Positions 2,976-46,497 of a stretch of DNA of 64,000 bases are shown piece after piece. The translations under genes were made by a program, and so were the position numbers. The DNA lies in the NCBI GenBank assembly GCA_018713745.1, contig DVOH01000016.1:15604-79603 (forward strand). The letters run 5' to 3'. The first letter of the stretch is position 1. Every line of letters starts with the position of its first letter. This DNA is from Candidatus Stercoripulliclostridium merdipullorum (GTDB lineage: Bacteria > Bacillota > Clostridia > Christensenellales > DTU072). The notes below the pieces were generated by a model that saw only the letters and a program-made list of their open reading frames with translations, had not been told where the DNA came from and ran no database searches.

Positions 2976-3021
2976 GCATCGCTCGAGGTATGGCGCGCCC
3001 CGACCTCGCCATACTGTAAGT

Positions 3022-3715: not shown

Positions 3716-4302
3716 CTCCTGTCGTTGCGATTCTCGTCGAGATACGTTGCCGAGAGGTCGGCAAGGTGGGTCAGGACGGCGATGGGGTAGTCGGCATACG
3801 CCTTGGCGATCGAGTGACTTCCGCCCCTTACGCGGTCGTCAAAACTTCCCATGTGCCAGTTTATCGCAAGTGCTTCTTCGCGGGTCAGACGGAGGAATCC
3901 GTTGATGATATAAACGGATTTTTCGCCGTGCCCGTAAGGGAGTTGTTCGTCGGTGGTATAAAACGGAACTTCTTTCCAGATACCGTTTTCTTTTACGTTA
4001 CGGTACGAAACGGCGTAAACGCCGATTTTGCAGACGTCATGCAGGAGTCCGCAGATCGCGACGGTTTCGTCCGAGTAAATTTCGGGGCGTTTTTCGCCGT
4101 ATTCGAGGTCGAGGAGGGATTTGAGGCGGAGATAAACGTTGACGCTGTGTTCGACCAGACCGCCTTCGCACGCCAGATGGAAGCGTGTGCTTGCGGGCGC
4201 GGTAAAGAAGTCGCTTTTTTTGAGATATTCGAGCAATTCCTCCGAGCCTTTGCGTTTGATGTTGGCTTGATACAGTTCGATAAAGCGATCGGCGTAGTTC
4301 AT
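3712..4302 (-). CDS. HD-domain phosphohydrolase
   Basis: 196-aa ORF with H..(LVEHS)..LLHDVCK..HMG pattern of the HD superfamily. The N-terminus (FTAPASTRFHLACEGGLVEHS) resembles small HD hydrolases common in Clostridia and phages. Confidence 0.8.
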   Translation of the reverse strand: MNYADRFIELYQANIKRKGSEELLEYLKKSDFFTAPASTRFHLACEGGLVEHSVNVYLRLKSLLDLEYGEKRPEIYSDETVAICGLLHDVCKIGVYAVSYRNVKENGIWKEVPFYTTDEQLPYGHGEKSVYIINGFLRLTREEALAINWHMGSFDDRVRGGSHSIAKAYADYPIAVLTHLADLSATYLDENRNDRS

Positions 4303-4303
4303 C

Positions 4304-5545
4304 TTATTCCTCCAAAGTATAAAGATCGGCGCGGATCGAACCCGTACCGCCGAGGGTCAACGCGCGGGGCGGACGAGCGGTCGAGAACAGGGCTTTTCCG
4401 TCGAAATAAAAGGCTGCCGATGCGGGCAGAATCAGAGCGTCCACGCGAGAGACACCCGAAGAAAGCGGGAAGCGGCGTTCGGTTTTGCCGTAGGTTACGA
4501 TGACGGCGGCGGCGTCGCGGTCGAAGTCGAAGCGGAATTCCTGCGCTTCGAGGGTGACGACGGAGCCGGAAGGGCAATCGATTGAGAGCGACAATTCGGT
4601 GGGACGGTCGGTATGCAGGGTGGCTTCGGTGCCGGGAGAAAGAGAGATCGTCTTTCCGTCGTGTGCCCGTCGGCGTTCGAGGCAGGAAGGATAGGTAAGG
4701 GTAAGCGCGTCGTTCGGCGCGGTCAGAGCCGATACGACCATTCCGTTTCCGATGTCGGTCGGGGTTGTGAGCAGGGTTTCGCCGCCCGCGACGGTCGAGG
4801 TGCGCGGCGCGCGAATACCGTAGAGGACCGATGCGTTTGCGGCGGAAAAATCGGCGCGGGTCAGATCGAAGTCGCCGCGCTCCGCAAGGGCTTCGTCCGA
4901 GCGAACGTCCTTGCGGTACAGCAGGACGCTTTGTGCGTTGCAAGTGAATGCGGAGGGGTGGGAAAAGCGCGCGGGCTTTCTGCCGCGGGATTCTCGGATC
5001 GTTCCGACCGATTCCCATTTCATCAGGTTTCGGGACTCCAAAAGAACGATTTCGGAGCGAAAGGGGCGACGGATCGCGCCGAGCAGGAAGTATCGTTTTT
5101 CGGCATAAAACAGACGCGGTTCTTTGAGGTCGAAGTGCGCCGACAAGACAGGCTCGGGATGGGGATCGAAGTGCAGTCCGTCCGAAGATTTGGCAAGGTG
5201 CAGACGGGTCCCGAAGGGGGTGCGCACCGCGTAAAGCAAAGCGATTTTTCCGCCGCGCAGCAGCGTTGTACAAGCCGTGACGGAGCCGCTTGTCCGAAGG
5301 TCGACAACGGTTGCGTCGTGCCAGAAGATACGGTCGGCGGATACGGCGCGTACGATTTTTTGGGGCATTGCGGGGGCGGGACGGGCGAGAAAATAGCAGT
5401 AGTACGTCCCGTCGAGATACAGCACCGATCCGCCCTCCTTGACGGCGGCGGTCGATGGCAGATCGCCAAAGCGTTGCAGTCGGTCGAAATCCTGTTTCAT
5501 CGCATCCTCCGAGTTTATTCTATACGGAAACGGACGGTTTGTCAA
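4304..5545 (-). CDS. Beta-propeller protein resembling the GH32/GH43 (beta-fructosidase-clan) fold, catalytic motifs not evident
   Basis: 413-aa ORF. Spacing of DGTYYCYFL, FWHD, KEPRLF and LMKWESVG recalls GH32 blades, followed by a beta-sandwich-like C-terminus. I cannot find WMNDPNG, RDP or EC signatures. Confidence 0.4.
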   Translation of the reverse strand: MTNRPFPYRINSEDAMKQDFDRLQRFGDLPSTAAVKEGGSVLYLDGTYYCYFLARPAPAMPQKIVRAVSADRIFWHDATVVDLRTSGSVTACTTLLRGGKIALLYAVRTPFGTRLHLAKSSDGLHFDPHPEPVLSAHFDLKEPRLFYAEKRYFLLGAIRRPFRSEIVLLESRNLMKWESVGTIRESRGRKPARFSHPSAFTCNAQSVLLYRKDVRSDEALAERGDFDLTRADFSAANASVLYGIRAPRTSTVAGGETLLTTPTDIGNGMVVSALTAPNDALTLTYPSCLERRRAHDGKTISLSPGTEATLHTDRPTELSLSIDCPSGSVVTLEAQEFRFDFDRDAAAVIVTYGKTERRFPLSSGVSRVDALILPASAAFYFDGKALFSTARPPRALTLGGTGSIRADLYTLEE

Positions 5546-5572
5546 TCGAGGGCGGAAATCCGCGGTTTTCCG

Positions 5573-5917
5573 TCAGGATTCGGGGTTCGGAGCGGGCGGT
5601 ACGCGTCCCGACAGTCCGATGACGTCTTCGACGGGGAGGGACACGGCAAGTCCGTTGCCTTCGGTGTGCAGTCCCGCGGCTTCGTAGATCGCTTCGAGAA
5701 TGGCTTTGCGCAAGTCGGAGCGGGCAAGGATCAGAATAATTTCGCGTTCGGGTTCGATGGTGACGCCGAGGAATTTGCTGACGTCGGCGCCGCCCGTCCC
5801 GCGGGCGTTCAGTACGGTTCCGCCCCGTGCGCCTTCTTTGCGCGCGGCGTTCATGACGGTGTCGGCATAGCCGTGTCGGACAATGGCAAGGATCATAGAG
5901 TAGCAAGCGGATTCCAT
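5573..5917 (-). CDS. P-II-like signalling protein (non-canonical, short T-loop)
   Basis: 114-aa ORF. The pattern ILAIVRHGYADTVMNAARKEGARGGTVLNARG...REIILILA... matches the P-II ferredoxin-like beta-alpha-beta layout. The gene context (DUF1538) is typical for this subfamily. Confidence 0.7.
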   Translation of the reverse strand: MESACYSMILAIVRHGYADTVMNAARKEGARGGTVLNARGTGGADVSKFLGVTIEPEREIILILARSDLRKAILEAIYEAAGLHTEGNGLAVSLPVEDVIGLSGRVPPAPNPES

Positions 5918-5921
5918 AGGG

Positions 5922-6269
5922 TTACCTCGAAGATTTGGGTTCGCCCAGCAGATAGCGGAGGGCGGTCAGACCGGAAACGGTCGAAACGGGCAGCGAAAAC
6001 GCCACCCCCGTATTGGGTTTGTCGAAGTCCAGTTCGGTGCCGAAGGCGTCGAACAGCGACGGAACTTCTGTCGCGGCGACGAAGGCGAGGACGACGGTTT
6101 TTTCGGTTTCGCCGAAGCCCAAATAGGATTGCAGTTCGCTGGGGGCGGTGCCGACGCCGGGGGCAGCCAGCTGAACGCGAATTTTGCGGCGATTGAGCAA
6201 GCGAATCAGACGTTTGCTTTTGGTGCGGTTGACGACGGCAACGATCAGACGCATCGGTTGAGGATCCAT
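5922..6269 (-). CDS. Second, divergent P-II-like protein
   Basis: 115-aa ORF (MRLIVAVVNRTKSKRLIRLL...TVVLAFV...). Same size and secondary-structure pattern as the neighbour. The start may instead be the internal Met (MRLIVAVV). Confidence 0.6.
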   Translation of the reverse strand: MDPQPMRLIVAVVNRTKSKRLIRLLNRRKIRVQLAAPGVGTAPSELQSYLGFGETEKTVVLAFVAATEVPSLFDAFGTELDFDKPNTGVAFSLPVSTVSGLTALRYLLGEPKSSR

Positions 6270-6270
6270 G

Positions 6271-7848
6271 TCAGTTCTCCTTTGGCGCGCGGAATGCGAC
6301 GGAATATCGCGCCGCGTCGGGCAAAACGATTTCGGATTCGGGGGCGTCGCCGCGGATGCGCTTTGCGTATCTGCGCGAGCGGTAAGCGTGAAGAGAGGGG
6401 AGATAGTCGGTGCGGGCGCGGTAAATCAGTCCCATCATCTGCACCGACAGAAGCGGCGTCATTGCGACAAAGGCGACCAGCCCGTAAGCGTCGGTCAGCA
6501 GGTTGCCGCCGAGGGCGGAGCAGGCGCCGACGGCGAAGGGCAAGATAAAGGTAGCGGTTGTAGGTCCCGACGCGACGCCGCCCGAGTCGAACGCGACGGC
6601 GGTGAAGATATCGGGGACGAAAAAGGACAAGAGAAGGGATACCGCGTAAGCGGGTGCAACGAAGTACCAAATGCTGACCGAAGTCAAAACGCGCAGCATT
6701 GCAAGTCCGACCGATGCCGAAACGCCGAGCGCAAGGCAAAGGAGCATTTTGCGGCGGGAGACGGTACCGCCGGTCAGATCCTCGACCTGCTTGTTGAGAA
6801 CGTGCACGGCGGGTTCGGCAAGAATGACGCAGCAACCCATGACGACGCCGAGCGGAATCAGAAAGGCGGGGGCGGAAAGGGCGACGGCTTCGCCGAGGGC
6901 GGCGCCCATGGGCATAAATCCGACGTTGACGCCGGTGAGAAAGACCGAAAGTCCGAAGTAAGCGTAAACGACGCCCACACCGATGCGGATCAGGTTTGCC
7001 GCGGGCAGGCGGAGGGCGAAGATCTGAAACAGCAAGAACACGCCGACGACGGGGAAGAGGGCGAGGGCGACCTCTTTGAGATATCGAGGCAGGGCGCCGA
7101 AAAAGGGGAGGATGGCTTCCGCGGCATTTGTGACCTGCGGGATGACGGTTTGGGAGGGGGTAACGTCGACCGAACCGGTCAAGCCGACGATCATGACGGC
7201 GATGACGGGACCCACCGAGCAAAGGGCGACCAAGCCGAAGGAATCGCGCGAGCTGTTTTTGCCGCGGACGGAAGCAAGCCCGATGCCGAGCGCCATCAGA
7301 AAGGGGACGGTAACGGGACCCGTGGTGACGCCGCCCGCGTCGAACGCGACGGCAAGGAAGTTGTCGGGGACAAAGGCGGCAAGGAGAAAGAGCAAGCCGT
7401 AGAGCAGGAGCAAAAGAAGATTGAGCGGAATATTGAACGCCATGCGGCACACCGCGACGAGCAGCGAGATTCCCACGCCGAGGGCGACGGAATAGAGGAT
7501 GGCGGCGTTAAGCCCTTCGCCTTGCTGCAACTGCGTTGCAAGCACCTGCAGATCGGGTTCGGCAACCGTGATCAAAAAGCCTAAGACGAAGCAAACGCCG
7601 AGAATCAAAGGAAGCTTTTTGGATTTGGTCAAAAAAGCACCGATGGAGTGCCCCATCGGCATCATGGCGAGATCGGTGCCCACGGTGAACAGCGTCATGC
7701 CGACGATCAGAAAAACGGATCCCACGGCAAACAAGCCGATCAGCCCTCCGTCGATTTTACGGGTGATCAGCGCGGCGACGATCCCGAGCACCGTGATCGG
7801 CAGAATGGATACCAGCGATTCGCGCAGTTTGAGCAGGACGTTTTTCAA
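6271..7848 (-). CDS. Fused double DUF1538 integral membrane protein
   Basis: 525-aa polytopic ORF with TTG start. It has two homologous halves, each with FDAGGVTTGP / FDSGGVASGP motifs. The family is normally encoded as two genes of about 250 aa next to P-II-like genes. Confidence 0.75.
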   Translation of the reverse strand: MKNVLLKLRESLVSILPITVLGIVAALITRKIDGGLIGLFAVGSVFLIVGMTLFTVGTDLAMMPMGHSIGAFLTKSKKLPLILGVCFVLGFLITVAEPDLQVLATQLQQGEGLNAAILYSVALGVGISLLVAVCRMAFNIPLNLLLLLLYGLLFLLAAFVPDNFLAVAFDAGGVTTGPVTVPFLMALGIGLASVRGKNSSRDSFGLVALCSVGPVIAVMIVGLTGSVDVTPSQTVIPQVTNAAEAILPFFGALPRYLKEVALALFPVVGVFLLFQIFALRLPAANLIRIGVGVVYAYFGLSVFLTGVNVGFMPMGAALGEAVALSAPAFLIPLGVVMGCCVILAEPAVHVLNKQVEDLTGGTVSRRKMLLCLALGVSASVGLAMLRVLTSVSIWYFVAPAYAVSLLLSFFVPDIFTAVAFDSGGVASGPTTATFILPFAVGACSALGGNLLTDAYGLVAFVAMTPLLSVQMMGLIYRARTDYLPSLHAYRSRRYAKRIRGDAPESEIVLPDAARYSVAFRAPKEN

Positions 7849-9807: not shown

Positions 9808-9839
9808 AGTGCCTCCGGCATCTTTGTAAGTATAGATTT

Positions 9840-9868
9840 ATTTTACTCTTCCAAACGGCTGTCGTCAA
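9840..9868 (-). promoter_or_regulatory. Sigma-A type promoter for glnA
   Basis: Minus strand TTGACG (9868-9863), 17 nt, TAAAAT (9845-9840). Short leader with GGAGG before the ATG. Confidence 0.45.
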
Positions 9869-9952
9869 TGGGAGGCGGAAAAGCAATCGAAGCGAAGTTG
9901 ATTTATTTACGATAGATTTGCCTTAAAAAATCGGCGGGCTATGCAAAAATCG

Positions 9953-10036: not shown

Positions 10037-10106
10037 AACATTGTAATGTGCGCCCGCGCGCTGAGTGGAACAAAAATTACCGAAAAGGAAAAAAGGAGAA
10101 CCGACA

Positions 10107-12185
10107 ATGAATATGTCCGAACTGTTCGGCTGTATGGTGTTCAACGATTCCGTCATGCAGGAACGTTTGCCCAAGGCGACGTATAAAGAACTCAAAACCT
10201 GCATCGCCGAGGATCGTAGTCTTCCCCTTCACGTTGCCAACGTCGTTGCCAACGCGATGAAGGACTGGGCGATCGAAAAAGGTTGTACGCACTTTACGCA
10301 CTGGTTCCAGCCGATGACGGGGGTAACCGCCGAAAAGCACGACTCGTTTATCAATCCGACGCCCGACGGCAAGGTGATTATGGAGTTCAGCGGCAAGGAG
10401 CTGATCAAAGGCGAACCCGACGCGTCGAGTTTTCCGTCCGGGGGACTGCGCGCAACGTTTGAAGCGCGGGGATATACCGCCTGGGATCCCACGTCCTATG
10501 CTTTCATCAAAGACGGAATCCTGTGCATCCCGACGGCGTTCTGCTCGTACGGCGGGGACGCGCTGGACAAAAAAACGCCTCTTCTGCGCAGTATGGAAGC
10601 CGTCAACCGCCAGGCAATGCGGATCATCCGTTTGTTCGGCAAAACCGACGTTCACAAGGTTCTGACGACGGTCGGGTCGGAGCAGGAATACTTTTTGATC
10701 GACCGCGAAATGTTTGACAAGCGCAAAGATCTTTTGCTGACGGGCAGGACGGTGTTCGGCGCCAGAAGTCCCAAGGGACAGGAGCTGGAAGATCACTATT
10801 TCGGCGCCATCAAACCGCGCGTCGTCGCTTATATGAAAGAGCTGGACGAAGAACTCTGGAAACTCGGGATTCTTGCCAAAACCAAGCACAACGAAGTCGC
10901 TCCTGCGCAGCACGAGCTTGCCCCGATTTATACGACAACCAACATCGCGACCGATCAGAACCAGCTGACGATGGAAGTGATGAAAAAAGTTGCGGCAAAA
11001 CACGGGATGGTCTGTCTGCTGCACGAAAAACCGTTTGCAGGCGTCAACGGCAGCGGGAAGCACAACAACTGGTCGATTTCGACCGATCTCGGCGAAAATC
11101 TGTTGGAACCCGGCGATACGCCCTACGAAAACGCACAGTTTCTGCTGTTTCTCTGTGCCGTGATCAAAGGGGTGGACGAGTATCAGGATTTGTTGCGGAT
11201 CTCGGTCGCGAGCGCAGGGAACGACCACCGTCTCGGCGCCAACGAAGCGCCTCCCGCGATCGTATCGATGTTCCTCGGCGAGGAGCTGACCGGCATTCTC
11301 GAGGCGATCGAAGGCGGCAGAACTTATTCCCGCCGCGCAAAGTGCGAAGTGGAAATCGGCGTGCACGTTCTGCCCAAATTCCCCAAAGACAGCACCGACC
11401 GCAACCGTACCTCTCCGTTTGCGTTCACGGGCAACAAATTCGAGTTCCGTATGCTGGGATCGACCTTCAGCATCGCGGGGTCCAATATCGTCCTCAATAC
11501 GATTGCCGCCGAAGAACTTCGACGTTTTGCCGACGAACTGGAGGCGGCACCCGACTTTTTGCCCGCGATCACCGAAATCGTCAAGCGGACGGTCCGCGAA
11601 CACAAACGGATTATTTTCAACGGGAACAACTATTCGGACGAGTGGGTCAAAGAAGCAAAGCGCAGAGGGCTTAGCAACTTCCGCACGGCGGCGGACGCGA
11701 TTCCGCACTTTGCCGATGCGCACAACGTCGAATTGTTTGTCCGACACGGCGTCTTTACCGAAAGCGAAGTCAAAACCCGTACCGAAATTTTGTTGGAAGG
11801 CTACTGCAAAACGCTGCACATCGAGGCAATGACGATGATCGATATCGCCCGTCAGCAGATCTTGCCCGCCGTTCTGAAATACGGCAAGGAACTTGCCGGC
11901 GCCGCGCTCAAAATGCGGGAGCTGTCCGCCGAGATCGATACGTCGGTCGAAATCGGTCTGATCAAAAAGCTGACCGACTTCGGCAAAGAAGCCGCCGGCG
12001 CATTGCAGCTTCTCGAGCGGGAGACCGAAAAAGCCGCGGCAAAAATGAGTGCCGAGGCATACCGCGACAAAGTGATTCCCGCAATGGAGCGGCTCCGCAA
12101 AGCCGTGGACGAACTGGAGCTGTATACCGCGTCGGAATACTGGCCGCTCCCGTCTTACTGCGATCTGCTGTATTCCGTCCGATAA
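10107..12185 (+). CDS. glnN: Glutamine synthetase, type III
   Basis: ATG at 10107 preceded by AAAAGGAG. The roughly 692-aa product begins [30 protein letters not shown]... and carries HWFQPMTG and [10 protein letters not shown] motifs typical of GSIII. Confidence 0.9.
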
Positions 12186-12206
12186 ACAATCTCGGCAAAC
12201 CCAAAA

Positions 12207-12239
12207 ACCCGCGCAAAAAGCGCGGGTTTTATTTTTTTT
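12207..12239 (+). terminator. Intrinsic terminator after glnN
   Basis: ACCCGCGC (12207-12214), loop AAAAA, GCGCGGGT (12220-12227), followed by a T-run to 12239. Confidence 0.7.
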
Positions 12240-12369
12240 GTCGATTCGGATTCCGATCGTACCGGAACGGAATCCCATTATATCGGAAAGAAAAATCAAC
12301 CGCGGCAATCGGCGCGGAAAATGCCGATGATGCACAAAAAAAGAAAAAAACGGGAATTAACAGAAAGTA

Positions 12370-12398
12370 TTGACGGGCAGAAATTTGTCTGATATCAT
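12370..12398 (+). promoter_or_regulatory. Sigma-A type promoter for the giant surface-protein gene
   Basis: TTGACG 12370-12375, 17 nt, TATCAT 12393-12398. Confidence 0.4.
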
Positions 12399-12461
12399 TA
12401 CAATGTATAGTAATCTGTACTTTTTACGCGCGCGATGCGTAAGAAGTGAGGAGAGGAAGTT

Positions 12462-15400
12462 ATGACGCGATTTGCCGATCGATTGTTCAGACGCAAAATG
12501 CTGCTCGCTTTGGGGCTTGTTGTGTTGGTCGTGATGACCGCGGTATTTGCATGGGGGGCGGCACCCGACCCCGCGCCCGCGGTGCAGGCGGCATGGAGCG
12601 GGAACGCCGCTTCGGGATTTGCCGGCGGAACGGGGACCGCAGATGATCCTTACCGCATCGCGACGGCAGAGCAGCTCGCCTATTTCCGTAATCAGGTCAA
12701 CGGCGGCAGAACGTTCGAAGGGGAATACATTGTCCTGACCGCCAACATCGATCTGATCGGCACTTCGGGCACAAAGCAGGGCTTCGGGACGATCGGGACA
12801 CCTACAATTGATTACGGAGAGGAATACCGGCCAAATGGGGCGGGCGGAAATGTTCGTATCGCAACCGGCGTCAGCGGCACGCCGTTTCAGGGCGTGTTTG
12901 ACGCGCGGATTTACGAAATCAAAAATCTGTATTGGAACGGCGGCGACTATCGCGGACTTTTCGGCTATATCGGCGAAAAGGGGAAGGTTTACAACGTAAC
13001 GATCTCCAACGTCGAGCTGATCTCGACGGGGTCGCTCAACGGGACGATCGCCGCCGTCAACCGCGGACTGATCGACAACTGCGTCGTCGCAAGCGGAACG
13101 GTCAAAAGCGCGGGAAGAGCGGGCGGCATCGTCGGCTTCAATTACGGCGGTACGGTGCGCAACTCGATCAACTGGGCAAATGTTTCGGCAAATGGAAAAT
13201 CGATCGTCGGAAATCATATCCCGGGGATTCACAATGTCGACTGGCTCGGGTCTGATTTCGGCGGTATCGCGGGCGTCATGACTTCGGGCGCCGTCATCGA
13301 TCAGTGCGCCAATTACGGCAACGTAACAGGTAGCGCCGAAGTGGGAGCGGATTCCGGTGGCACCAGGGCAGGCGGTTTGGCAGGGCTCCTTGATACTTCG
13401 ACGATCAGTGATTCCTATTTTATCGGCTCCTTGTCCAACCGCAACACGAATGACATCGGAGGCTTTACCGGTTCTATTTACGACGGTACGGTGACAAACT
13501 GTTATCACCAAAGCGGGGCATCCAAATTGTACGGGTGGGAGCAGTCGACAACCGGCGGCACCCGCACCAACAACCATGCAAGCGGTTCGGAGGCGGCAGG
13601 AAGTCTGAATAACGGAGTCTGGAAGGTCGACACCGCCCGCCACAACGGCTATCCCTATCTGATCAACACCAGACTGTTCGACAGCTATGCCGCGTCCCAG
13701 TCCGATCTCGGGCTTCTGCCCGAAGGTAGCGTTCCCGCAGGATATAACAATACTAACGGGACCCCAATAAGCAGTGCGGATGATTTTTATGCGTTTAGAA
13801 ATGCAGAAAATACAACCCAAAATTATTATTTGACGCAAGACATCACCGTTACATATCCCAAAAACGGCAATAACATTGTACATTATGGTTTATGGTACGG
13901 AGGAACTTTTGACGGGAACGGACATACCATCACGTTTCAGGCAGGAACTTCAGGCAGTTGGTGCAGTACGATGCGGTACAGCCGGGCATTTGGTGGATTT
14001 TTTGCGTCAACCATTAATGGCGGAACCGTCAAAAACCTGAAAATCGTTGTGGAGGATTCCTATACGACAACCGATCTCGACAATACAGAAGTAACAAGCG
14101 GCTTCGGTGTTATTGCAGGAGATGTCTCGGGTGCAACGATCGACAATGTTTCGGTTGAAGTGAAGACGCTTAAGTTCCATACGGAATGTAACTATGGAGG
14201 ATGGACTAACAGAGTAAATTGGTATGGACAAACCAGTTTCGGCGGTTTGTTCGGAACGGCAAACGATGCCAACAATAACGGCGTAACGATCCGAAATACG
14301 AGCGTAACATTTACAGGAACGCCGGAATTCAAAAGAAAAACGGATGATGGTGGCGTTTGGTCTTTCTTTGGAGGGTTAATCGGTAATATCAAAAACACCG
14401 CGGCAATCAATATACAAGGAGTGAGGGTTCATTTCCAAAACGGTGCCAGGTATTTGATGTATCGGAGCAACAGCGGTCATTTTGGCGGAATGATCGGGGA
14501 AACATATGCGGGCGGAACGGTCAATATTTCGGACAGCTTTTACGATTTCGACGGAGAGTTATACACTGAAAATTTGACCGGCGGATACAAAGGGAAACTG
14601 ATCGCCGCAGTACAAAGCGGCACGACAAAACTGAACAATATCTATTACGGACCCGGTGCAGAAGCTTCCAAAATCTATGTACCTAACGGGGGAGAGCCCA
14701 CGCAAAAAAATTATTATGAGATTGCAGGCTTTGATGGAGCAGGATTTCTTCGCGCTGACTTTGATCCCCAAACACCGGGAATGATGTGGGTTACCCTGAA
14801 TGCCGACGGGGGGAGTGAAACCCTCGGCCGCGCGGGAGAGTGGGACTGGAGTAAGGACTGGGACGGCATGATCCTGGTCGGCAGTCAACCCGGGACCTAT
14901 TCGGTCCGGATGTCGACGGCGCAACTCAAAGCGTTTTCGACCCTTAACAAAGGAACGGGATCGGTTTCCAACGATCTTTATACGGATGTTAATCTTTCTT
15001 CTTCCTTATCCTTTTCGGGACAGGCCTCCGGCATCGTTTCCGAACTGCGCAAGTGGCAAACGTCACCGCCCGAAATGCGAAATTATTTCGGGACCTGGCG
15101 CGGAGGCATTGCCGTTGAGAGCGGAAGCGGTACGGTCGAGATCTTCGACAAGGAGACGGGAGAATTTGTCTGGGCGACCGACGGGAGCCAAAACGGCAAT
15201 TACTTTGACAACGACGGCAATCTCGTCACCAATGACAAAGGGATCGGGCATTTGATCCCGGGGACGTATGTCGCGCGCCTTGTTCATCCCTATGCTGCCG
15301 TCTTGCATCATGGATCTACCAACCGGTATTGGTACGACTTCGAGACAATTCCTTTTGTCGAATTTACCATCGAGCCCAAAACCGTGACGGTCGAGGCCTC

Positions 15401-18400
15401 TGCTTCTTATGTCTACGGCGATAAGGCGGCAGGCGCCGATCTCGGGCACACCGTTTGGACGTCGGGCGGAACGCAAATCACGGCAGAGGACTATACCTTT
15501 ACGACAAGCGGCAATATCGCAGAGATTCCCTTCTATCTCACGTTTTCGGTTGCGGCGGCAGGGACTTCTCCCCGCCCGGCAGGAAGCTATCCGATTTCGG
15601 TCTCTACCTCGTCGCCGATCTACTCCATTGGCGGAACGGCAGGAAACTACGTCGTCAGTCCTAAGCCCGTCACCGTGACGATCGCAAGCGCCAACAAAAC
15701 GTACGGCGACGGCGATCCGACGTTTGCCTGGTCGACGACGGATACCCTTCCTTACGGCGAAGTCGCGAAAGACGTTTTGGGTATTACGCTGTCCCGCGAC
15801 GAGGGCGAAGACGTCAAAGATGGCGGCTATGCGATCACGGGATCGTCGACCAACGGGAATTACGCCATCAGCTGGGCCAACGGAACGCTGACGATCAACC
15901 CCAAAGCGATTACCGTGACGATCGACGACAAAACGCAGGTTTACGGGGATCCCGAGGAAACTTTGACCTGTAGCGTCGGCGGTCTGGTGAACGGCGATAC
16001 CGAAGGGGATCTCAACATTCACTTACAAAGAGCGGAGGGGCGAGACGTGGCGAAGTATCCCATTACGGGGACTTATACCAACGCCAATTATACCGTCACG
16101 TTTACGGACGGTGTTTATACGATCACCCCGCGTCCGATCACCGTGACGATCGCAAGCGCCAACAAAACGTACGGCGACGGCGATCCGACGTTTACCTGGT
16201 CGACGGCGGACTCGCTCCCTTACGGCGAAGTCGCGGAAGAAGTTTTGGGTATTACCCTGTCCCGTGAAGGGGGCGAAGACGTCAAAGATGGCGGCTATGC
16301 GATCACGGGATCGTCGACCAACGGGAATTACGCCATCAGCTGGACCAACGGCACGCTGACGATCGACCCCAAAGCGATCACCGTGACGATCGACGACAAA
16401 ACGCAGGTTTACGGGGATCCCGCAGTTGCGTTGACCGCGCAGACAGAGGCGACGCTTCCTTACGGCGATCTGCTGGAAAATATCGTGTCACTGACCCGCG
16501 AAGCGGGCGATACCGTCAAAGAGGGCGGCTACGCGATCACGGGCGAAGGAGTAAGCGACAACTATAACGTCACATTTCATAATAACGGCGTTTATACGAT
16601 CACCGCGCGCCCCGTTACCGTGACGCTGACCTTCGGCGGTTTGACGGAAGAGGGCGGCATCTATTATTGGACGTACGGCGATTACGGCGCGGGCGGCTTC
16701 GGAACCGGAACGGCAACGATAACCGTTTCGGAGAGCGGCTTGGTATCGGGCGACGGCGTCGGGGCAGACTTCGCCGTTACGCAAGAGGGCATTGCCGCAA
16801 CCCTGAAAAATGTCGGAACCTATACCTTCGGCATTGTGTTGACGGGGGACAACGCCCGCAACTACGCGCTGACCAAAGTGTTTGAAGGGATTACGGGCGA
16901 AGGCGACACGCGCGATGTCGAAGTCCGTCCGTTGGTGCTCGAATATACGACGAAGTCCGCAAGTTTTGTATACAATGAATATACGGCGGAAAAGCCGCTT
17001 CCCTCCCCCGACGCGATCGGCGCCAAGGCAACTCTCGAGACGGAGCTTCCGTACGGCGACGCGGAGCCGGAAATTGTCCTTGTTTATACCGATGATCCCG
17101 CCGAGATCATGAAATTGTCGGTGGGGGAATACAAAAAAATTCTGATGCAACTCGCCGAGGGGCAAAGCAATTACAGCCTTTCCGCAGACAGCGATCTGAT
17201 TACGCTGATCATAGAGAAGGGGACGATCTCTCTTGCGTTGGACGAAAGTTTTGTCACGGATTATACCTATGCGGCGGATCTTAGCGTTTCGTTCGGCGAT
17301 AAATTGACCGCGAAGGACGAGTTTGGGAAGCCTTATGTTCCCCAATATACTGCCAAACTCTATTTCGACGAAAGTAAAAAGTGGTTTGAAGGTACGACCT
17401 CGGTCGGTGTTCCGTATGTTCCGTCCGTCGATCAGGAAGAAACGTTTGTTACGCTGACGCTCGAAATCCTTGTAAGCAGCGATTCCAACTACAACGACGC
17501 TACGCTGACGGTACCGATTACGTTGCGGAAAGGGGCGTTCGATCTTACGGGCGTAACGTTTGAGAATCAGACGTTTATCTATGACGGAACCGCGCACGAA
17601 ATGGCTTTTGCGGGGTTGCCGATCGCGCAGAACGGTGAAACGCTGAGCGGCAGCGTCGTTTATCCCGACGGCGCCGATCGCGTCAACCATACCCCCGCCC
17701 CGATCGCGGCGCAACTGGTCTTTACCGTTTCGGGCAAAGAGTATGACGGAATTACCTATTATAATTACAAGATTCCCGATCCGTGGACGGCGACCATGAC
17801 GATCGACAAGGCAACCGTCGATCTCTCCCGCTACGGCTTGGTGCTCGAACGCAGACAACAGGCGGACGGCGCGGTACGCGAAACCCTTACGATCGAAGGG
17901 AGTTCCGTTACGGTTGTTTATTATGCGGGGTGCGCGTTCTTCGTCGTGCCCGACGCCGATCTTCCCGCCTTTATCGAGGCGGAGATAACGGGAGAAGCCG
18001 CCGCGACGGGTGCCGGCGCGGTCAAGTGGGATGTGACGAATCGGAAAGCGCTTTCCTATCAATTCACCGTTAAGTTCAGTCTGAGCGACGCAAACGGCAA
18101 TTACGAAATTTCCGGCGCCGATCAGCGCACCGTCGAGGTTACCGTCGAACAGCGCAAAGTTACGCTGTCGCCCCGTCGACAGGATACCGTATTTAACGGC
18201 GAACAGCAGATTCCGAGTGCGGACCTTACCAAGTGGCGGTACGCCTTCGAGGGTGTAGAAGGAGAGGCGCTTGCCGCTTTCCTTGCCGACTTTGAGAAAA
18301 GCGGAACGTTTGCCGCGCGTGCCGAGTCCTTTACCTCGATCGGCACTGATAAGGCGGTCAACGCCGGGATTTACGCCATCAACGGCGTTTATACCCCCGA

Positions 18401-21400
18401 TTCGGGCAATTACAACTATGCCGTCACCGTCAACAAATCGCAAGAAAATTCGGCAGACAGCGCCGACGCCTTTGTCATCGCCAAAGCGCAATACGGAAAC
18501 CTCGACAACGTGACGTTCGACGGAAAAACCGTCGTCTACGACGGAAACGCGTATACGATCACGGTTTCGGGGCTTCCGACAGACGTCAACGGTGTCGGGG
18601 TCGAACCGCAGTATTCGGTGACGAAAGACGGCAGCGCGACGGAAGACGTCTTCTTTACCAACGCGGGAACGTATGACTATGTCGCGATTTGGAACGATCT
18701 CAATTACGAGGCAGTGACGCGGGAAGCGACGCTTATCATCCAAAAGGCAACCTTCGATCTTTCCGTCGTTCGGTTCGAGGACGGCACGTTTATCTACGAC
18801 GGGCAGTATCATAGCCTTGCCCTTTCGTCGGACGAGCCCCTCCCCGATTGGATTACGGTTTCTTACAGCTCCAACAATTCCAAAAAGGATGTCGGCCCCT
18901 CCTTGGTGGTTACGCTGGAGCTTTCCCACGAAAACCCCAACTATCATGCGTTCGACGCAAGTGTCGCGCAACAACGCGCAACGCTTACCATCGCGGCGCG
19001 CCCCATCGATGTGACGATTCTGTCCGCAAGCAAGGTGTACGGCGATGTCGATCCCGCTTTCGACTGGGAGAGCGGCGAAGGCTTGGTCGAAGGGGACGAT
19101 CTGAAGATTACGGTAAGCCGCGACGATCGCGACAATCAAAACGTCGGTACTTACGTATTGAACGGGACAAGCGGCAACGGGAATTATGCCGTTACCTTCA
19201 ATTCCGATGCCGTTCTGACGATCGGGCAACGCGACCTTGTGATCGATCTCGATAGCGTTTCGAAGGTTTATCGCTATCCCGATCCCAATCCCGACCCCGA
19301 TCTGACGTTCGGGATTGCGGACGGATATCAATTATATTATGACGATACCGTTGCGCTTCTCGGCGTTACGCTCAGTCGCGCCGCGGGTGAAACGGCAGGG
19401 AGTTACGAGATCACGGCAACCCTTCCCGACGCCGGCAACTATCGCATTACGGTCGGCAGAACCGCGGTCTTGACGATTGCAAAAGCCGACGTTACGATCG
19501 GCGTCGAGGGCATCGTCAAGGACTATGTTTACACCGGGGTGTCCTTCCGCATCGAAACAGGGGCGACCCACAATAATACCGACGAGGGCGCGGTGCTGAT
19601 CTATCCCGACAAGGACTTCCTGCTGGTTGCCGATTCGGGCGAATACACCGTGTCGATTGCCGAAACCGCCAACTACAATGCCCAAAGCGTAACCTTTACC
19701 GTTACCATTGTCAGAGCCGACGTCGCGTTTGATTTCGGCGGGGTCGGGCAGTATGTTTACAACGGTTCGCTGCAGACCGTCACGGGCGTTACCCACACCA
19801 ATACCGATGCCGAAGCAACCTTAGTGTATCGCAATCATACGTTTACCGATGTTCCCGAAAACGGGATCCTGACGATCGAGGTTTCGATTGCCCAAACCGC
19901 AAACTTTAATGCGGCGAGCGCAACCTTCGACGTTACGGTCGACAAAGCGACGTATGTCATCGATATCGCCTTTGACGATCAAACCGTCCGCTATCACGGC
20001 GACGCCGTCGACCTTTTGATCGCAGGGGAGCTCCCCGAGGGCGTAACCGTCCGCTATACCGGCAACGGCAATCGCAATCAGGGCGTATATGTGGTCGTTG
20101 CCGAATTCGAGGGCGACGGACGCAACTATCATCCCATCCCCGATCGCGAAGCAACGCTGACGATTCTGCCCGCGTCGCTTTCGGTTACGATCGACGATCA
20201 GACTTCGGTTTACGGCGATGCGCTCAATACGTTGACCTATCTTGTCGAAGGAGAAATCTACAGCCAGGACGGCGTCAAGGACGATCCGATGATCGGCGTA
20301 TTCAAAGAAGACGGGCTTCGTGCGGGCGAGTACGCAATCACGGGACACGGCGGCAATGCCAACTATGACGTGACGTTTGAGAGCGCCGTTTATCGCATCA
20401 CCCCGCGGGAAGCAACGCTTACCGCCAATGAGGTGACTGCCGTTTACGGCGATCTCGACACGGCATTGACCTTTGTCGCGGACAACGTGCTGGACGGCGA
20501 TCTCGAGCGGTTTACGGGCGGGTTGCAACGCGAACCCGGCAGAAACGTAGGGAAATACGCGATCTCTTCCACACTTGCCAATCCCGACTATACGATCACG
20601 TTTGTTTCGGCAGATTATATCGTTTTGCCGCGCGAAGTGACCGTTACCCTGCGCGATCAGTCGGGCATTTCGGGCGAGGACGTTCTCAGCCAGTCGGCGT
20701 ATGACATTACCGACGGCAACGTGATCGCAGGCGATACGCTGGGGCTCCGTTTGCGGCGCGCACCCGGGACCACGCGCGGCGAGTATCCCATCACGGCGAC
20801 CTACTCCAACAAAAACTATCTTCTGGACATCATCCCTGCAATCTATTATCTGTCCGAGCGCGCGGTCATTACGTTCACTCGTCCTTCCGACTTCGTCTAT
20901 GACGGCAATCCCTTCTCGATCAGCGCGTCGATCAACAGCGACACCGCTTTGATCTTTACCGTCAACGGCGTCCGCAGCGACAACTTCTTCGATGCGCCCG
21001 GCAATTACTCCGTCCGCATTTCGGCGACGGCAACCGACGAATACGTCGAACCCATCCCCGTCAGCTTCACCTTTACGATTTTGGCGGCGGAATTGATCTT
21101 TACCGACGAGCAGGGCGGCGAAATCATCATTTCCCTCCCCGAAGGATTTATGCCCGGCACGGCGATCGAAGTCGTTCTTGCCGAGTCTTCGGTCAAAGAC
21201 GCCATTCATAAGCAGATCTCTACCGCTTACGCCATGGTCGAGGGTTACGATATCTATATCGTCGAAAACGGCGTCAAAATCCCCCTCGGAGAGTATGTTG
21301 CGTCCGATACGCTCAAAGTCCGCATCAAACTTCCCTCCGTGTTTGCCGAGGAAGAATCGGTTTGGTTTGTCGGATTCCGAGGCGGAAAAGCCGAACTCGG

Positions 21401-21572
21401 CGAACTGACCAACGAGGACGGTTATATCGTTATCGAAGGCGGCAGCTTTGACTCGGTAATCTTTGTCAGTCGGCAGGAACTGTCGACGTTTATCTATCTG
21501 TTGATCGGCGTCGTTATTCTCGTTGCCGTTGTCATGACGGCGTACTTCCTGTTCCGTCGCAAGACGATATAA
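12462..21572 (+). CDS. Giant (3036 aa) cell-surface repeat protein: N-terminal signal/anchor, GLUG-type beta-helix region, many MBG-like (YGD) repeats, C-terminal TM anchor
   Basis: Single uninterrupted ORF with SD GAGGAGAGG. The N-terminus has a hydrophobic helix (LLALGLVVLVVMTAVFAWG). It has repeated GGIVG/GGLAG motifs. There are at least 10 modules of about 75-80 aa of the form (I/V)TVTI...YGD.DP....L.GD....L.R..GE.VG.Y.I.......NY.(I/V).F..G.(L/Y)TI. The C-terminus is LLIGVVILVAVVMTAYFLFRRK. Confidence 0.85.
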   Translation: MTRFADRLFRRKMLLALGLVVLVVMTAVFAWGAAPDPAPAVQAAWSGNAASGFAGGTGTADDPYRIATAEQLAYFRNQVNGGRTFEGEYIVLTANIDLIGTSGTKQGFGTIGTPTIDYGEEYRPNGAGGNVRIATGVSGTPFQGVFDARIYEIKNLYWNGGDYRGLFGYIGEKGKVYNVTISNVELISTGSLNGTIAAVNRGLIDNCVVASGTVKSAGRAGGIVGFNYGGTVRNSINWANVSANGKSIVGNHIPGIHNVDWLGSDFGGIAGVMTSGAVIDQCANYGNVTGSAEVGADSGGTRAGGLAGLLDTSTISDSYFIGSLSNRNTNDIGGFTGSIYDGTVTNCYHQSGASKLYGWEQSTTGGTRTNNHASGSEAAGSLNNGVWKVDTARHNGYPYLINTRLFDSYAASQSDLGLLPEGSVPAGYNNTNGTPISSADDFYAFRNAENTTQNYYLTQDITVTYPKNGNNIVHYGLWYGGTFDGNGHTITFQAGTSGSWCSTMRYSRAFGGFFASTINGGTVKNLKIVVEDSYTTTDLDNTEVTSGFGVIAGDVSGATIDNVSVEVKTLKFHTECNYGGWTNRVNWYGQTSFGGLFGTANDANNNGVTIRNTSVTFTGTPEFKRKTDDGGVWSFFGGLIGNIKNTAAINIQGVRVHFQNGARYLMYRSNSGHFGGMIGETYAGGTVNISDSFYDFDGELYTENLTGGYKGKLIAAVQSGTTKLNNIYYGPGAEASKIYVPNGGEPTQKNYYEIAGFDGAGFLRADFDPQTPGMMWVTLNADGGSETLGRAGEWDWSKDWDGMILVGSQPGTYSVRMSTAQLKAFSTLNKGTGSVSNDLYTDVNLSSSLSFSGQASGIVSELRKWQTSPPEMRNYFGTWRGGIAVESGSGTVEIFDKETGEFVWATDGSQNGNYFDNDGNLVTNDKGIGHLIPGTYVARLVHPYAAVLHHGSTNRYWYDFETIPFVEFTIEPKTVTVEASASYVYGDKAAGADLGHTVWTSGGTQITAEDYTFTTSGNIAEIPFYLTFSVAAAGTSPRPAGSYPISVSTSSPIYSIGGTAGNYVVSPKPVTVTIASANKTYGDGDPTFAWSTTDTLPYGEVAKDVLGITLSRDEGEDVKDGGYAITGSSTNGNYAISWANGTLTINPKAITVTIDDKTQVYGDPEETLTCSVGGLVNGDTEGDLNIHLQRAEGRDVAKYPITGTYTNANYTVTFTDGVYTITPRPITVTIASANKTYGDGDPTFTWSTADSLPYGEVAEEVLGITLSREGGEDVKDGGYAITGSSTNGNYAISWTNGTLTIDPKAITVTIDDKTQVYGDPAVALTAQTEATLPYGDLLENIVSLTREAGDTVKEGGYAITGEGVSDNYNVTFHNNGVYTITARPVTVTLTFGGLTEEGGIYYWTYGDYGAGGFGTGTATITVSESGLVSGDGVGADFAVTQEGIAATLKNVGTYTFGIVLTGDNARNYALTKVFEGITGEGDTRDVEVRPLVLEYTTKSASFVYNEYTAEKPLPSPDAIGAKATLETELPYGDAEPEIVLVYTDDPAEIMKLSVGEYKKILMQLAEGQSNYSLSADSDLITLIIEKGTISLALDESFVTDYTYAADLSVSFGDKLTAKDEFGKPYVPQYTAKLYFDESKKWFEGTTSVGVPYVPSVDQEETFVTLTLEILVSSDSNYNDATLTVPITLRKGAFDLTGVTFENQTFIYDGTAHEMAFAGLPIAQNGETLSGSVVYPDGADRVNHTPAPIAAQLVFTVSGKEYDGITYYNYKIPDPWTATMTIDKATVDLSRYGLVLERRQQADGAVRETLTIEGSSVTVVYYAGCAFFVVPDADLPAFIEAEITGEAAATGAGAVKWDVTNRKALSYQFTVKFSLSDANGNYEISGADQRTVEVTVEQRKVTLSPRRQDTVFNGEQQIPSADLTKWRYAFEGVEGEALAAFLADFEKSGTFAARAESFTSIGTDKAVNAGIYAINGVYTPDSGNYNYAVTVNKSQENSADSADAFVIAKAQYGNLDNVTFDGKTVVYDGNAYTITVSGLPTDVNGVGVEPQYSVTKDGSATEDVFFTNAGTYDYVAIWNDLNYEAVTREATLIIQKATFDLSVVRFEDGTFIYDGQYHSLALSSDEPLPDWITVSYSSNNSKKDVGPSLVVTLELSHENPNYHAFDASVAQQRATLTIAARPIDVTILSASKVYGDVDPAFDWESGEGLVEGDDLKITVSRDDRDNQNVGTYVLNGTSGNGNYAVTFNSDAVLTIGQRDLVIDLDSVSKVYRYPDPNPDPDLTFGIADGYQLYYDDTVALLGVTLSRAAGETAGSYEITATLPDAGNYRITVGRTAVLTIAKADVTIGVEGIVKDYVYTGVSFRIETGATHNNTDEGAVLIYPDKDFLLVADSGEYTVSIAETANYNAQSVTFTVTIVRADVAFDFGGVGQYVYNGSLQTVTGVTHTNTDAEATLVYRNHTFTDVPENGILTIEVSIAQTANFNAASATFDVTVDKATYVIDIAFDDQTVRYHGDAVDLLIAGELPEGVTVRYTGNGNRNQGVYVVVAEFEGDGRNYHPIPDREATLTILPASLSVTIDDQTSVYGDALNTLTYLVEGEIYSQDGVKDDPMIGVFKEDGLRAGEYAITGHGGNANYDVTFESAVYRITPREATLTANEVTAVYGDLDTALTFVADNVLDGDLERFTGGLQREPGRNVGKYAISSTLANPDYTITFVSADYIVLPREVTVTLRDQSGISGEDVLSQSAYDITDGNVIAGDTLGLRLRRAPGTTRGEYPITATYSNKNYLLDIIPAIYYLSERAVITFTRPSDFVYDGNPFSISASINSDTALIFTVNGVRSDNFFDAPGNYSVRISATATDEYVEPIPVSFTFTILAAELIFTDEQGGEIIISLPEGFMPGTAIEVVLAESSVKDAIHKQISTAYAMVEGYDIYIVENGVKIPLGEYVASDTLKVRIKLPSVFAEEESVWFVGFRGGKAELGELTNEDGYIVIEGGSFDSVIFVSRQELSTFIYLLIGVVILVAVVMTAYFLFRRKTI
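15671..16420 (+). repeat. Tandem intragenic duplication, period 468 bp (156 codons), about 1.6 copies
   Basis: CACCGTGACGATCGCAAGCGCCAACAAAACGTACGGCGACGGCGATCCGACGTTT... occurs at 15671 and again at 16139. About 285 bp align with only scattered substitutions (by eye above 90 percent) before the copies diverge near 16420. Confidence 0.8.
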
Positions 21573-21578
21573 TCCCGT

Positions 21579-22781
21579 ATGGCGGCTAAACCCGAACTGC
21601 TTGCCCCGGCGGGCAACTTCGCAAAACTTAAGACGGCGCTTGCGTTCGGCGCAGACGCCGTCTATCTCGGAGGGAAGCGGTTTTCCCTCCGTTCTTATGC
21701 CGACAACTTCGATTTCGATACGCTCAAAGAAGCCGTAAGCGTCGCTCACGACGCGCGCAAAAAAGTGTATGTCGCCGTCAATATTTTTTGCAAGGATTCC
21801 GACTTTGCCGACCTGAAAGAAGAGCTGCCACGCTTGCATCGGGCAGGCGTCGACGCGCTGATCGTTTCAGATCCCGGCTTGATTGCCTTTGCCAAAGAAT
21901 CGGTCCCCGATCTCGCGTTGCATCTTTCGACGCAGGCAAATACCCTCAATTCGCACGCCGTGCGGTTTTGGCATCGGCAAGGGGTGGAGCGCGTCGTTCT
22001 GGCGCGGGAGCTGTCGGCGGATCAGGTCAAAGCGATCAAGGACGCCGTTCCCGAAATGGAGATCGAGTGCTTTGTGCACGGCGCGATGTGCATTTCGTAT
22101 TCGGGCAGATGCCTGTTGTCCAATTATCTTGCCCGACGCGACGCCAATCGCGGGGAATGCGTACAAGCGTGCCGATGGCACTTCCGCGTTTCGGAGGGCG
22201 ACAACGCGCTCGAACTCGAAGAGGACGCGCGCGGTACCTATCTTCTCAACAGCAAAGATCTCAATTTGATCGACCGCATCCCCGCTCTGATCGAAGCGGG
22301 GGTCGACTCCTTCAAAATCGAAGGACGGATGAAATCGGAGTATTATGTCGCAACGGTAACCGAGGCGTATCGTCGCGCAATCGACGCCGTACTCGGCGGC
22401 GGCGCTGTGCCGAAGTCGTCGGTCGAGCTTCTCGAAAACGTTACGCATCGCCCCTATACGCATGCCTATTTCGACGGCGACAACGCGGCGACCGTTTCGT
22501 ACGACGACAGCCAGCAGGGCGGGAAGGGCGTATTTGTCGCGGTCGTGCTGGGGGCGGAAGGTAAGACGGCTCTGGTCGAAATGCGCAACCGCTTCCGCGA
22601 CGGCGAAACGTTAAAGGTGCTGTCGCCGCAGTATTCCGCGGATCTTGACGTTACCGTCCGGAATCTGCGGGACGCGGAAGGCACTCCCGTAGCCGACGCC
22701 AAACTGGTACAGCAACAACTGTATTTCGACAGCGATTTGTCGCTGACGAAGGGAGATATTTTGTATCGGAGATCGGTTTGA
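21579..22781 (+). CDS. U32 family protein (peptidase U32 / prephenate-dependent hydroxylase family), short form
   Basis: 400-aa ORF starting MAAKPELLAPAGNFAKLKTALAFGADAVYLGG..., with E..VHGA.C.SYSGRC and a Cys cluster (RGECVQACRW) typical of U32. Confidence 0.85.
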   Translation: MAAKPELLAPAGNFAKLKTALAFGADAVYLGGKRFSLRSYADNFDFDTLKEAVSVAHDARKKVYVAVNIFCKDSDFADLKEELPRLHRAGVDALIVSDPGLIAFAKESVPDLALHLSTQANTLNSHAVRFWHRQGVERVVLARELSADQVKAIKDAVPEMEIECFVHGAMCISYSGRCLLSNYLARRDANRGECVQACRWHFRVSEGDNALELEEDARGTYLLNSKDLNLIDRIPALIEAGVDSFKIEGRMKSEYYVATVTEAYRRAIDAVLGGGAVPKSSVELLENVTHRPYTHAYFDGDNAATVSYDDSQQGGKGVFVAVVLGAEGKTALVEMRNRFRDGETLKVLSPQYSADLDVTVRNLRDAEGTPVADAKLVQQQLYFDSDLSLTKGDILYRRSV

Positions 22782-30606: not shown

Positions 30607-31040
30607 AAATACTTTGTCTGCACGGACCCAACCTCAATTTGCTCGGCATTCGCGAACCCGATCTGTACGGGGATCGCTCTTATCGCGCGCTGATTGCGTT
30701 TGTGCGGCGCGTCGCCGCGGAGCAGGGCGTTTCGATCCGTTGCAAACAGACCAATCACGAAGGAAAACTCGTCGATTGGATTCAGAAAGCGCGGGGACGT
30801 TATGACGGGATCGTCATCAACGCCGGCGCATATACCCATACCTCGGTCGCCGTTCTCGACGCCTTGAAAGCGGTGGGCATCCCCACGGCGGAAGTCCATC
30901 TGACCGATATCGACAGCCGCGAAGATTTCCGAAAGCACAGTTATATTTCGCTTTATGCCGCCGTTCGGGTGGCGGGCGAAGGGTTCGAAGGGTATCGCCG
31001 CGCATTGACGGAGCTGGTTGCGTTATGTCGGAACTCTTAG
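30603..31040 (+). CDS. aroQ: Type II 3-dehydroquinate dehydratase
   Basis: 145-aa ORF MKILCLHGPNLNLLGIREPDLYG...QTNHEG...INAGAYTHTS. Confidence 0.9.
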   Translation: MKILCLHGPNLNLLGIREPDLYGDRSYRALIAFVRRVAAEQGVSIRCKQTNHEGKLVDWIQKARGRYDGIVINAGAYTHTSVAVLDALKAVGIPTAEVHLTDIDSREDFRKHSYISLYAAVRVAGEGFEGYRRALTELVALCRNS

Positions 31041-41449: not shown

Positions 41450-41462
41450 TCGGAGAGTTTAT

Positions 41463-42710: not shown

Positions 42711-42728
42711 TATAAGGATAAAAGCATT

Positions 42729-46454: not shown

Positions 46455-46475
46455 CGACGATCTTACAATTCGAAA

Positions 46476-46497
46476 GGCGCGGCAACGCGCCTTTTTT
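46476..46497 (+). terminator. Intrinsic terminator after purL
   Basis: GGCGCG (46476-46481), loop GCAA, CGCGCC (46486-46491), TTTTTT 46492-46497. Confidence 0.7.

Follow-up and report, generated by a model that had tools for sequence, protein, structure and literature searches.

What is a 9.1-kb gene doing among the glutamine synthetase and aromatic amino acid genes of an uncultured chicken-gut Clostridia genome, and what kind of protein does it encode? The window in which this question arises is a stretch of 64,000 nucleotides (nt) of Candidatus Stercoripulliclostridium merdipullorum (contig DVOH01000016.1, positions 15,604 to 79,603), and the giant gene lies at positions 12462-21572 of its plus strand as a single unbroken open reading frame (ORF) for 3036 amino acids (aa), or 14% of the window; an ORF check thus confirmed the extent and continuity that an earlier note on this DNA had reported. 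Our analysis suggests, with a probability of roughly 0.7, that the product is an adhesin-like surface fiber that is exported through the Sec pathway and anchored in the membrane at its C-terminus (type I topology): a signal-peptide-like start, beta-helix heads, a stalk of MBG modules and a transmembrane helix follow one another along the chain, as the earlier note had proposed when it described an adhesin-like fiber held by a C-terminal helix. The mature protein would have a mass of ~321 kDa and is acidic (pI 4.4).

The distal part of the protein carries two related modules. Judged by whole-module homology and predicted fold, head module 1 (aa 34-420; 12561-13721; starting GTGTADDPYRIATAEQL) is a GLUG-type right-handed beta-helix: it opens with the GxGTxxDPYxIxTxxQL signature of the module-alignment consensus; BLASTP against modules of GLUG-annotated proteins gave E values of 1e-15 to 1e-32, and more than 80 proteins with precomputed PF07581 and/or Peptidase_M26_N (PF05342) assignments contain several of these matching modules of ~300 aa each; its AlphaFold2 (AF2) model, built on a 27-sequence alignment, shows a regular strand-turn-strand pattern (predicted TM-score, pTM, 0.84); and the best Foldseek match of this model in the PDB is 3n6z (E 3.6e-9, TM-scores 0.59/0.67), a “putative immunoglobulin A1 protease” of Bacteroides ovatus, with further matches to the S. 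pneumoniae immunoglobulin A1 (IgA1) protease structures 6xja (E 1.1e-5), 7uvl and 6xjb. A profile made from the module-1 alignment matches the query twice, at aa 37-415 and aa 456-737, and the second match points to head module 2 (aa 430-760; 13749-14741) as a more divergent module of the same family; a Pfam GLUG (PF07581) scan of aa 400-800 gave no match. The repeated GGIVG/GGLAG glycine motifs reported for this region in the earlier note are indeed present as GGIVG, GGIAG and GGLAG in the turns of module 1 (aa 220-340), and are accompanied by GG(F/L/M)xG motifs at aa 510-680, with GGFF, GGLFG, GGLIG and GGMIG in module 2.

Could the heads instead make the protein a surface enzyme, related to the IgA1 (M26) proteases or to beta-helix enzymes that degrade glycans, and no adhesin at all? 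In fold, the head comes closest to 3n6z and the IgA1 proteases of S. pneumoniae and G. haemolysans, and weaker matches extend to pectate lyases and tailspike depolymerases. However, the region that module 1 has in common with the IgA1-protease structures is one that we take to be their non-catalytic N-terminal beta-helix domain; no HEXXH occurs anywhere in the protein, on which ground the protease reading was rejected; Pfam scans (including the Peptidase_M26 catalytic family) and NCBIfam scans found no enzyme family in it; and the lyase and depolymerase matches have E values of at least 0.1 and TM-scores of at most 0.2. We consider an enzymatic function highly improbable. The window protein thus resembles the GLUG/M26 IgA1 proteases (3n6z, 6xja) in a head module that is homologous to their ~300-aa modules and has a similar predicted fold, and differs from them in lacking a metalloprotease domain and in carrying its modules on an MBG stalk rather than on a protease. 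Two wider searches were uninformative: the whole-protein NCBIfam scan returned only a meaningless 18-bit entericidin match, and a sequence search of the PDB returned chance antibody matches only.

Behind the heads lie a neck (aa 761-970; 14742-15371), which is conserved in 37%-identical homologs (BLASTP of query aa 42-1433 against P0010), and a stalk (aa 971-2878; 15372-21095) in which Pfam and self-built profiles detect 21 tandem MBG-superfamily modules of 75-100 aa. Pfam MBG_2 (PF18676) matches nine stretches with E 2.3e-88 and 291.3 bits, well past its gathering threshold of 25 bits, and a self-built hidden Markov model finds nine strong canonical copies of the YGD type (aa 1067-1148, 1147-1224, 1223-1304, 1303-1383, 2179-2257, 2256-2342, 2570-2649, 2648-2724 and 2723-2800). 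A broader self-profile, seeded on “YDG”-type stretches, converges on 21 modules over aa 970-2878 without large gaps and joins the non-canonical modules, which are divergent and YDG/MBG_3-like, to the MBG_2 copies; the undetected interval at aa 1590-1691 probably holds one more, which would bring the total to ~22. Against Pfam's thresholds of 25 bits, MBG_3 (PF18887) reaches 25.5 bits when segment aa 2016-2097 is scanned by itself and 19.8 in the whole protein, and YDG (PF18657) scores 10.9. The earlier note had counted at least ten modules of 75-80 aa, followed by less regular Ig-like stretches: its count holds when the divergent copies are included and fails for the canonical copies, and the less regular stretches exist, but the self-profile places them in the same MBG superfamily rather than in a type of their own.

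Is the number of these modules stable? MBG_2 and YDG owe their definition to repeats in the stalks of surface proteins, CdrA among them, and both MBG_2 and CdrA figure in the study of “Periscope Proteins”, whose repeats were selected for at least 80% identity (PMC8201768); literature on “MBG domain” and “GLUG” was otherwise mostly irrelevant, this paper being the only useful one. If the window protein were of that kind, the repeat number of its stalk would change rapidly between strains and thereby vary how far the head projects. Besides the membership of MBG_2 in the repeat families of that study, two observations favor this mechanism: a segment of 299 nt is duplicated at 93% identity, 468 nt apart (15670-16436; aa 1067-1224 against aa 1223-1383), as the sole recent internal duplication; and one variant, P0008, lacks exactly one MBG module (aa 1156-1231; 15927-16154) within it. 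Against the identity of at least 80% selected in the Periscope study stand an identity of 25-51% between adjacent modules and a median of 32% over all pairs, one non-adjacent pair reaching 86%. Tandem Repeats Finder reports no array in the DNA, so the stalk repeats are not DNA-level tandem repeats; eight of nine variants, a small sample, agree in module count and measure 3021-3037 aa; and distant members of the family are also ~3000 aa long, so that length looks conserved. Given this stable length and the divergence of the repeats, rapid change in repeat number seems very unlikely, and a stalk of fixed length is the reading that we prefer.

At the proximal end, a last beta-sandwich domain (aa 2879-3008; 21096-21485, from the AF2 model) is followed by the transmembrane helix FIYLLIGVVILVAVVMTAYFLF (aa 3010-3031) and the tail RRKTI, which together make up aa 3009-3036 and, with the stop codon, positions 21486-21572, as seen both in the sequence and in the AF2 model. 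The earlier note had recognized this helix with its basic tail, and the hydrophobicity profile bears it out as the second of two hydrophobic stretches. The AF2 model of aa 2800-3036 (mean predicted local distance difference test score, pLDDT, 86.7; pTM 0.70) comprises two beta-sandwiches and then a 27-residue helix (model residues 210-236, that is aa 3009-3035), and its final strand (aa 2998-3004) stops 4-5 residues before the helix. The absence of the two common Gram-positive attachment signals, likewise stated before, also stands: no LPXTG-like motif occurs in the last 120 aa, and no Pfam match to the S-layer homology (SLH) domain (PF00395) was obtained with the whole protein or with segments of it. 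Nor does the protein match the two-partner secretion (TPS) domain (PF05860) in Pfam; among proteins with MBG_2 matches, only proteobacterial ones carry that domain.

LPXTG, PEP-CTERM and PGF-CTERM signals all end in a hydrophobic helix with a short basic tail, and it could be that the C-terminus is a sorting signal for a sortase-like or exosortase-like enzyme, in which case the protein would be cleaved and then attached to the wall or released. Weak partial matches to the NCBIfam LPXTG_anchor model (TIGR01167; 12.9 bits, cut-off 15.9) and to PEF-CTERM (12.7 bits), together with the strong conservation of the tail as F-R-K-K, speak for this possibility. However, these matches lie below the cut-offs and are limited to the transmembrane and tail positions (model positions 9-32 of LPXTG_anchor); the LPXTG-like motif itself is missing; the linkers between strand and helix in family members share no Pro/Gly signature and are only of a polar or acidic kind (SRQELST, AERETL, TEENTNY); the 4-5 residues between the folded domain and the helix leave scant room for a processing site; and no sortase-like gene adjoins the giant gene in any genomic context that we looked up. 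Enzymatic sorting therefore seems improbable to us. The lack of a sortase motif, together with a helix that follows almost directly on the folded domain, makes it most likely that the protein stays in the membrane instead of being joined to peptidoglycan, as far as sequence and model indicate; by its sequence features, it is neither a sortase substrate nor an SLH protein, a TpsA protein or an M26 protease.

The C-terminal module has no Pfam or NCBIfam family, and a word-indexed search with the C-terminal 237 aa returned a single fragment. This search was superseded by an exhaustive one, in which a profile of the last 160 aa was compared with 1.84 billion representatives of 50%-identity clusters and matched 79 proteins at E <= 0.001, 42 of them at E <= 1e-10. 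In almost all of these proteins the match lies at the extreme C-terminus; most of them are 2800-3566 aa long; and the family alignment shows an invariant F-R-x-K motif, which takes the form F-R-(K/R/N)-K. Most members carry MBG_2 modules and few the GLUG-type head, which indicates a constant stalk and anchor below a head that can be exchanged; that family members vary in their N-terminal regions while sharing stalk and anchor is what one would expect of adhesins. A set of 102 more remote GLUG/MBG giants includes 11 with a transmembrane helix and a basic tail at the C-terminus, and none with an LPXTG motif. An anchor module that recurs in giants of 2800-3566 aa, and a similar ending in 11 of 102 distant ones, do not agree with the earlier suggestion that this mode of anchoring is less usual. 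We tentatively propose that the last ~160 residues are an undescribed, narrowly distributed anchoring module, combined with a constant stalk that acts as a molecular ruler below exchangeable heads, although we hold this for a possibility rather than a likelihood. If it were true, the module would mark a clade of giant proteins of gut Clostridia with a conserved length of ~2800-3600 aa, and this conserved length, together with the non-repetitive DNA, would set a fixed distance from the membrane, the opposite of the variable-length Periscope Proteins.

The N-terminus bears on whether the fiber is held at one end or at both. The 19-residue Kyte-Doolittle mean exceeds 1.6 at two stretches only, aa ~8-36 and aa ~3004-3033, and the first of them falls in a segment (aa 1-33; 12462-12560) with the n-, h- and c-regions of a Sec signal peptide, MTRFADRLFRRK-MLLALGLVVLVVMTAVFAWG-AAPDP. 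An uncleaved signal anchor would loop the fiber onto the membrane by both termini, and this arrangement draws on the core LLALGLVVLVVMTAVFAWG, which is long for a signal peptide, and on several family members without an obvious AXA site at the N-terminus (e.g. MKKNISKKLSKATILLVAFVALTMVFTIYQ). We nevertheless regard it as unlikely: the core is followed by small residues at −3 and −1 (A-W-G↓A); in the 37%-identical homologs, the signal region ends ...LALAASA↓VG, a textbook A-S-A↓V site; every GLUG/MBG protein of comparable type that was retrieved begins in a signal-peptide-like way; and a head tied to the membrane would leave a stalk of 1900 residues pointless. Given the basic n-region (RLFRRK), the hydrophobic core, the small residues at the putative AWG↓A site and the canonical site of the homologs, aa 1-33 are probably a Sec signal peptide rather than a second anchor. 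Both hydrophobic ends described in the earlier note are thus present, but its reading of the N-terminal one as an anchor is not supported.

How widely, and how faithfully, is the protein kept? Nine variants of 2948-3037 aa are known to us from the searched collections: P0001, with 100% identity to the window protein, and eight others that are 83-92% identical to the query. Protein P0200 (3036 aa), which we take to be near-identical to the window protein by its membership in the 90%-identity cluster of P0001, is the public entry HIU99882.1 (UniRef100_A0A9D1NCA6) of Candidatus Stercoripulliclostridium merdipullorum (Clostridia, Eubacteriales incertae sedis); the entry goes under the names “hypothetical protein” and “MBG domain-containing protein”, and carries no description of the heads, the anchor module or the population variation. 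Indels are few among the nine variants; besides the module missing from P0008, a 14-residue loop of head module 1 (aa 116-129; 12807-12848) is missing in five of the nine. Sequence variation falls mainly within aa 100-2300, and the membrane-proximal aa 2300-3036 are 93-99% conserved. More distant homologs, at 37% identity (3215-3322 aa) and 27-29% identity (3579 aa), keep head, stalk and anchor alike.

Comparison of the window strain with the strain of related locus L001 places this variation among the neighboring genes. Amino acid identity is 92% for the giant protein, as against 99% for glnA, 100% for glnN, 98% for the U32-family gene and 100% for DAHP synthase; the ratio of nonsynonymous to synonymous substitution rates (dN/dS) is 0.43 for the giant gene and 0.04, 0.06, 0.00 and 0.20 for glnN, U32, DAHP synthase and EPSP synthase, respectively. 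Synonymous divergence (dS) is comparable (0.089 for the giant gene vs. 0.04-0.10 for the flanking genes), and the giant protein evolves faster than its neighbors. A raised dN/dS with variation in the distal two-thirds, above a conserved membrane-proximal third, is the pattern of a protein that is exposed and yet functional, and it would be consistent with a partner that changes or with pressure from the immune system or from phages.

Several observations weigh against a surface fiber of this design. The N-terminal hydrophobic core is long (~19 residues) and could stay in the membrane as a second anchor; the neck has no family match in Pfam; the C-terminal fold matches generic tandem Ig/Fn3/CBM structures, at TM-scores of 0.2-0.3; a dN/dS of 0.43 could be explained by relaxed constraint instead of diversifying selection; and the 28-residue GLUG model of Pfam gives only 15 bits (E 0.035, three stretches in aa 1-420) at a gathering cut-off of 20.5 bits, so that the GLUG-type head of the earlier note stands for module 1 by homology and fold and falls short at Pfam's own threshold.

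With these points taken into account, a membrane-anchored fiber could work as follows. The protein would be expressed from a promoter of its own, probably jointly with the downstream U32 gene; the signal peptide would direct it to the Sec system and then probably be removed; the C-terminal helix (aa 3010-3031) would act as a stop-transfer anchor, leaving the RRKTI tail in the cytoplasm and the last beta-sandwich directly on the membrane. The stalk, fixed in length and built of ~22 MBG-type modules that diverge from one another, would cross the wall and present the ~210-aa neck and the two GLUG-type beta-helix modules far from the cell, at a distance of tens of nanometers as estimated from the number of modules. 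The heads would most likely bind a ligand (another cell, or a glycan or protein from the host or the diet), so that the protein would serve as an adhesin or as a cell-surface spacer. The ORF, the domain families, the predicted folds, conservation, synteny and evolutionary rates are results of the analysis, whereas we infer export, signal-peptide cleavage, topology, stalk length and binding function; the hydrophobicity profile and sequence features fit a Sec-dependent type I membrane protein.

Like CdrA of Pseudomonas aeruginosa and other MBG_2-stalk proteins, the window protein would hold other domains far from the cell on a tandem MBG_2 (PF18676) stalk; CdrA, however, is a Gram-negative two-partner-secretion protein, whereas the window protein lacks the TPS domain and has a C-terminal transmembrane helix as its anchor, and its repeats, unlike those of the MBG_2-stalk proteins in PMC8201768, are divergent (median identity 32%) and stable in number. 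With the LPXTG giant adhesins (SasG, Rib, Sgo_0707; PMC8201768) it shares the general layout, with a probable signal peptide, a presumed distal binding region, a repeat stalk and a hydrophobic C-terminus with a basic tail; it differs from them in having no sortase motif and a folded domain that abuts the helix.

The gene has expression signals of its own. An intrinsic terminator with an 11-bp stem and a T-run closes the upstream glnN (12204-12230, plus strand), and 3' of it lies a candidate sigma-70-like promoter (TTGACG-17-TATCAT with a TG extension; 12370-12398, plus strand) that matches the consensus at 10 of 12 positions and is the one site found in a promoter scan where shuffled sequences gave 0.3. 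A putative ribosome-binding site, AGGAG, can be read at 12449-12453 on the same strand, 8 nt 5' of the ATG. On the other side, the U32-family gene (21579-22781, plus strand) has its ATG 6 nt beyond the stop codon of the giant gene; no terminator, promoter-like site or clear Shine-Dalgarno sequence was seen in this gap, and the 6-nt spacing is identical in the related loci L001, L086 and L089. Because neither a terminator nor a promoter separates them, the two genes are probably co-transcribed, and the housekeeping-type U32 gene may depend on read-through from the gene of a surface protein.

The position between the glnN terminator and the U32 gene is as the earlier note had given it. The gene order runs from glnA (minus strand) through glnN (type III glutamine synthetase), the giant gene and U32 to the aromatic amino acid genes for DAHP synthase, prephenate dehydrogenase, dehydroquinate synthase and EPSP synthase, and the GC content of the giant gene (52-56%) is not distinct from that of the rest of the window. 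The glnN-giant-U32-aro arrangement recurs in every related-assembly context retrieved; because the locus is the same in all of these assemblies and the nine variants are 83-100% identical, we conclude that the giant gene is fixed in this lineage. This result does not agree with the view that it is the only obviously accessory gene of the neighborhood, nor has the suggested insertion been demonstrated: when a genome collection was scanned for the U32 protein, no close relative of this species turned up, and although the nearest other species, found through a U32 of 59% identity, has glnN beside U32 and no giant gene, its glnN is inverted, the aro genes do not lie downstream and the proteins concerned are only 59-67% identical, so that an insertion cannot be inferred. 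In other lineages the family holds a different, conserved position: the 37%-identical P0012 (locus L003, 10001-23487) and the 27-29%-identical P0018 (locus L087, 1-20675) lie directly upstream of nrdG-nrdD and a thioredoxin-reductase-like gene, with L087 carrying a tandem pair of giants (3445 aa and 3579 aa).

Several further features of the window were recorded. Two probable lipoproteins, with signal sequences ending in LTAC and LAGC, are encoded at 52090-54201 (plus strand) and 56908-57762 (minus strand), so that the giant gene is not the sole envelope or non-housekeeping gene of the window; the first has 703 aa and no Pfam family, and lies in the stretch of lowest GC (0.50). The nitrogen-assimilation cluster that adjoins the giant gene differs by a strain-level indel: the strain of L001 has ~3.5 kb extra between glnA and glnN (3925-7444; equivalent to 9817-9905 of the window), made up of three genes with GXGXG, Glu_synthase and GATase_2 domains (a split glutamate synthase) that the window lacks. 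A second, longer U32-family gene follows the aro genes at 31025-33208 (727 aa, with a DUF3656 “collagenase” domain) and adjoins a gene for a 726-aa protein with a RyR domain (33252-35432). A minus-strand ORF at 41439-46526 (1695 aa), considered as a second giant gene, was rejected as a GC-driven antisense artifact, because it has no Pfam match, its translation is Arg-rich nonsense and a 1241-aa ORF occupies the plus strand at the same place; other long antisense ORFs lie at 16488-19331 (minus strand), inside the giant gene and resembling the former, and at 10077-12335 (minus strand).

In conclusion, the giant gene encodes a known kind of bacterial surface protein with a near-identical public entry, and its C-terminal anchor module is the sole element without a described family. 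The finding opens no new kind of biology; its value lies in annotation, where the small, recognizable anchor module could become a family model, and in offering adhesion research a candidate, provided that the organism or the heads can be expressed. It offers a clean example of its type: a probable signal peptide, two beta-helix heads, a divergent MBG stalk of fixed length and a membrane anchor without a sortase motif, in a protein that measurably evolves faster than its housekeeping neighbors. Giant surface proteins are probably how uncultured gut Clostridia attach to the host, to food particles or to other cells.

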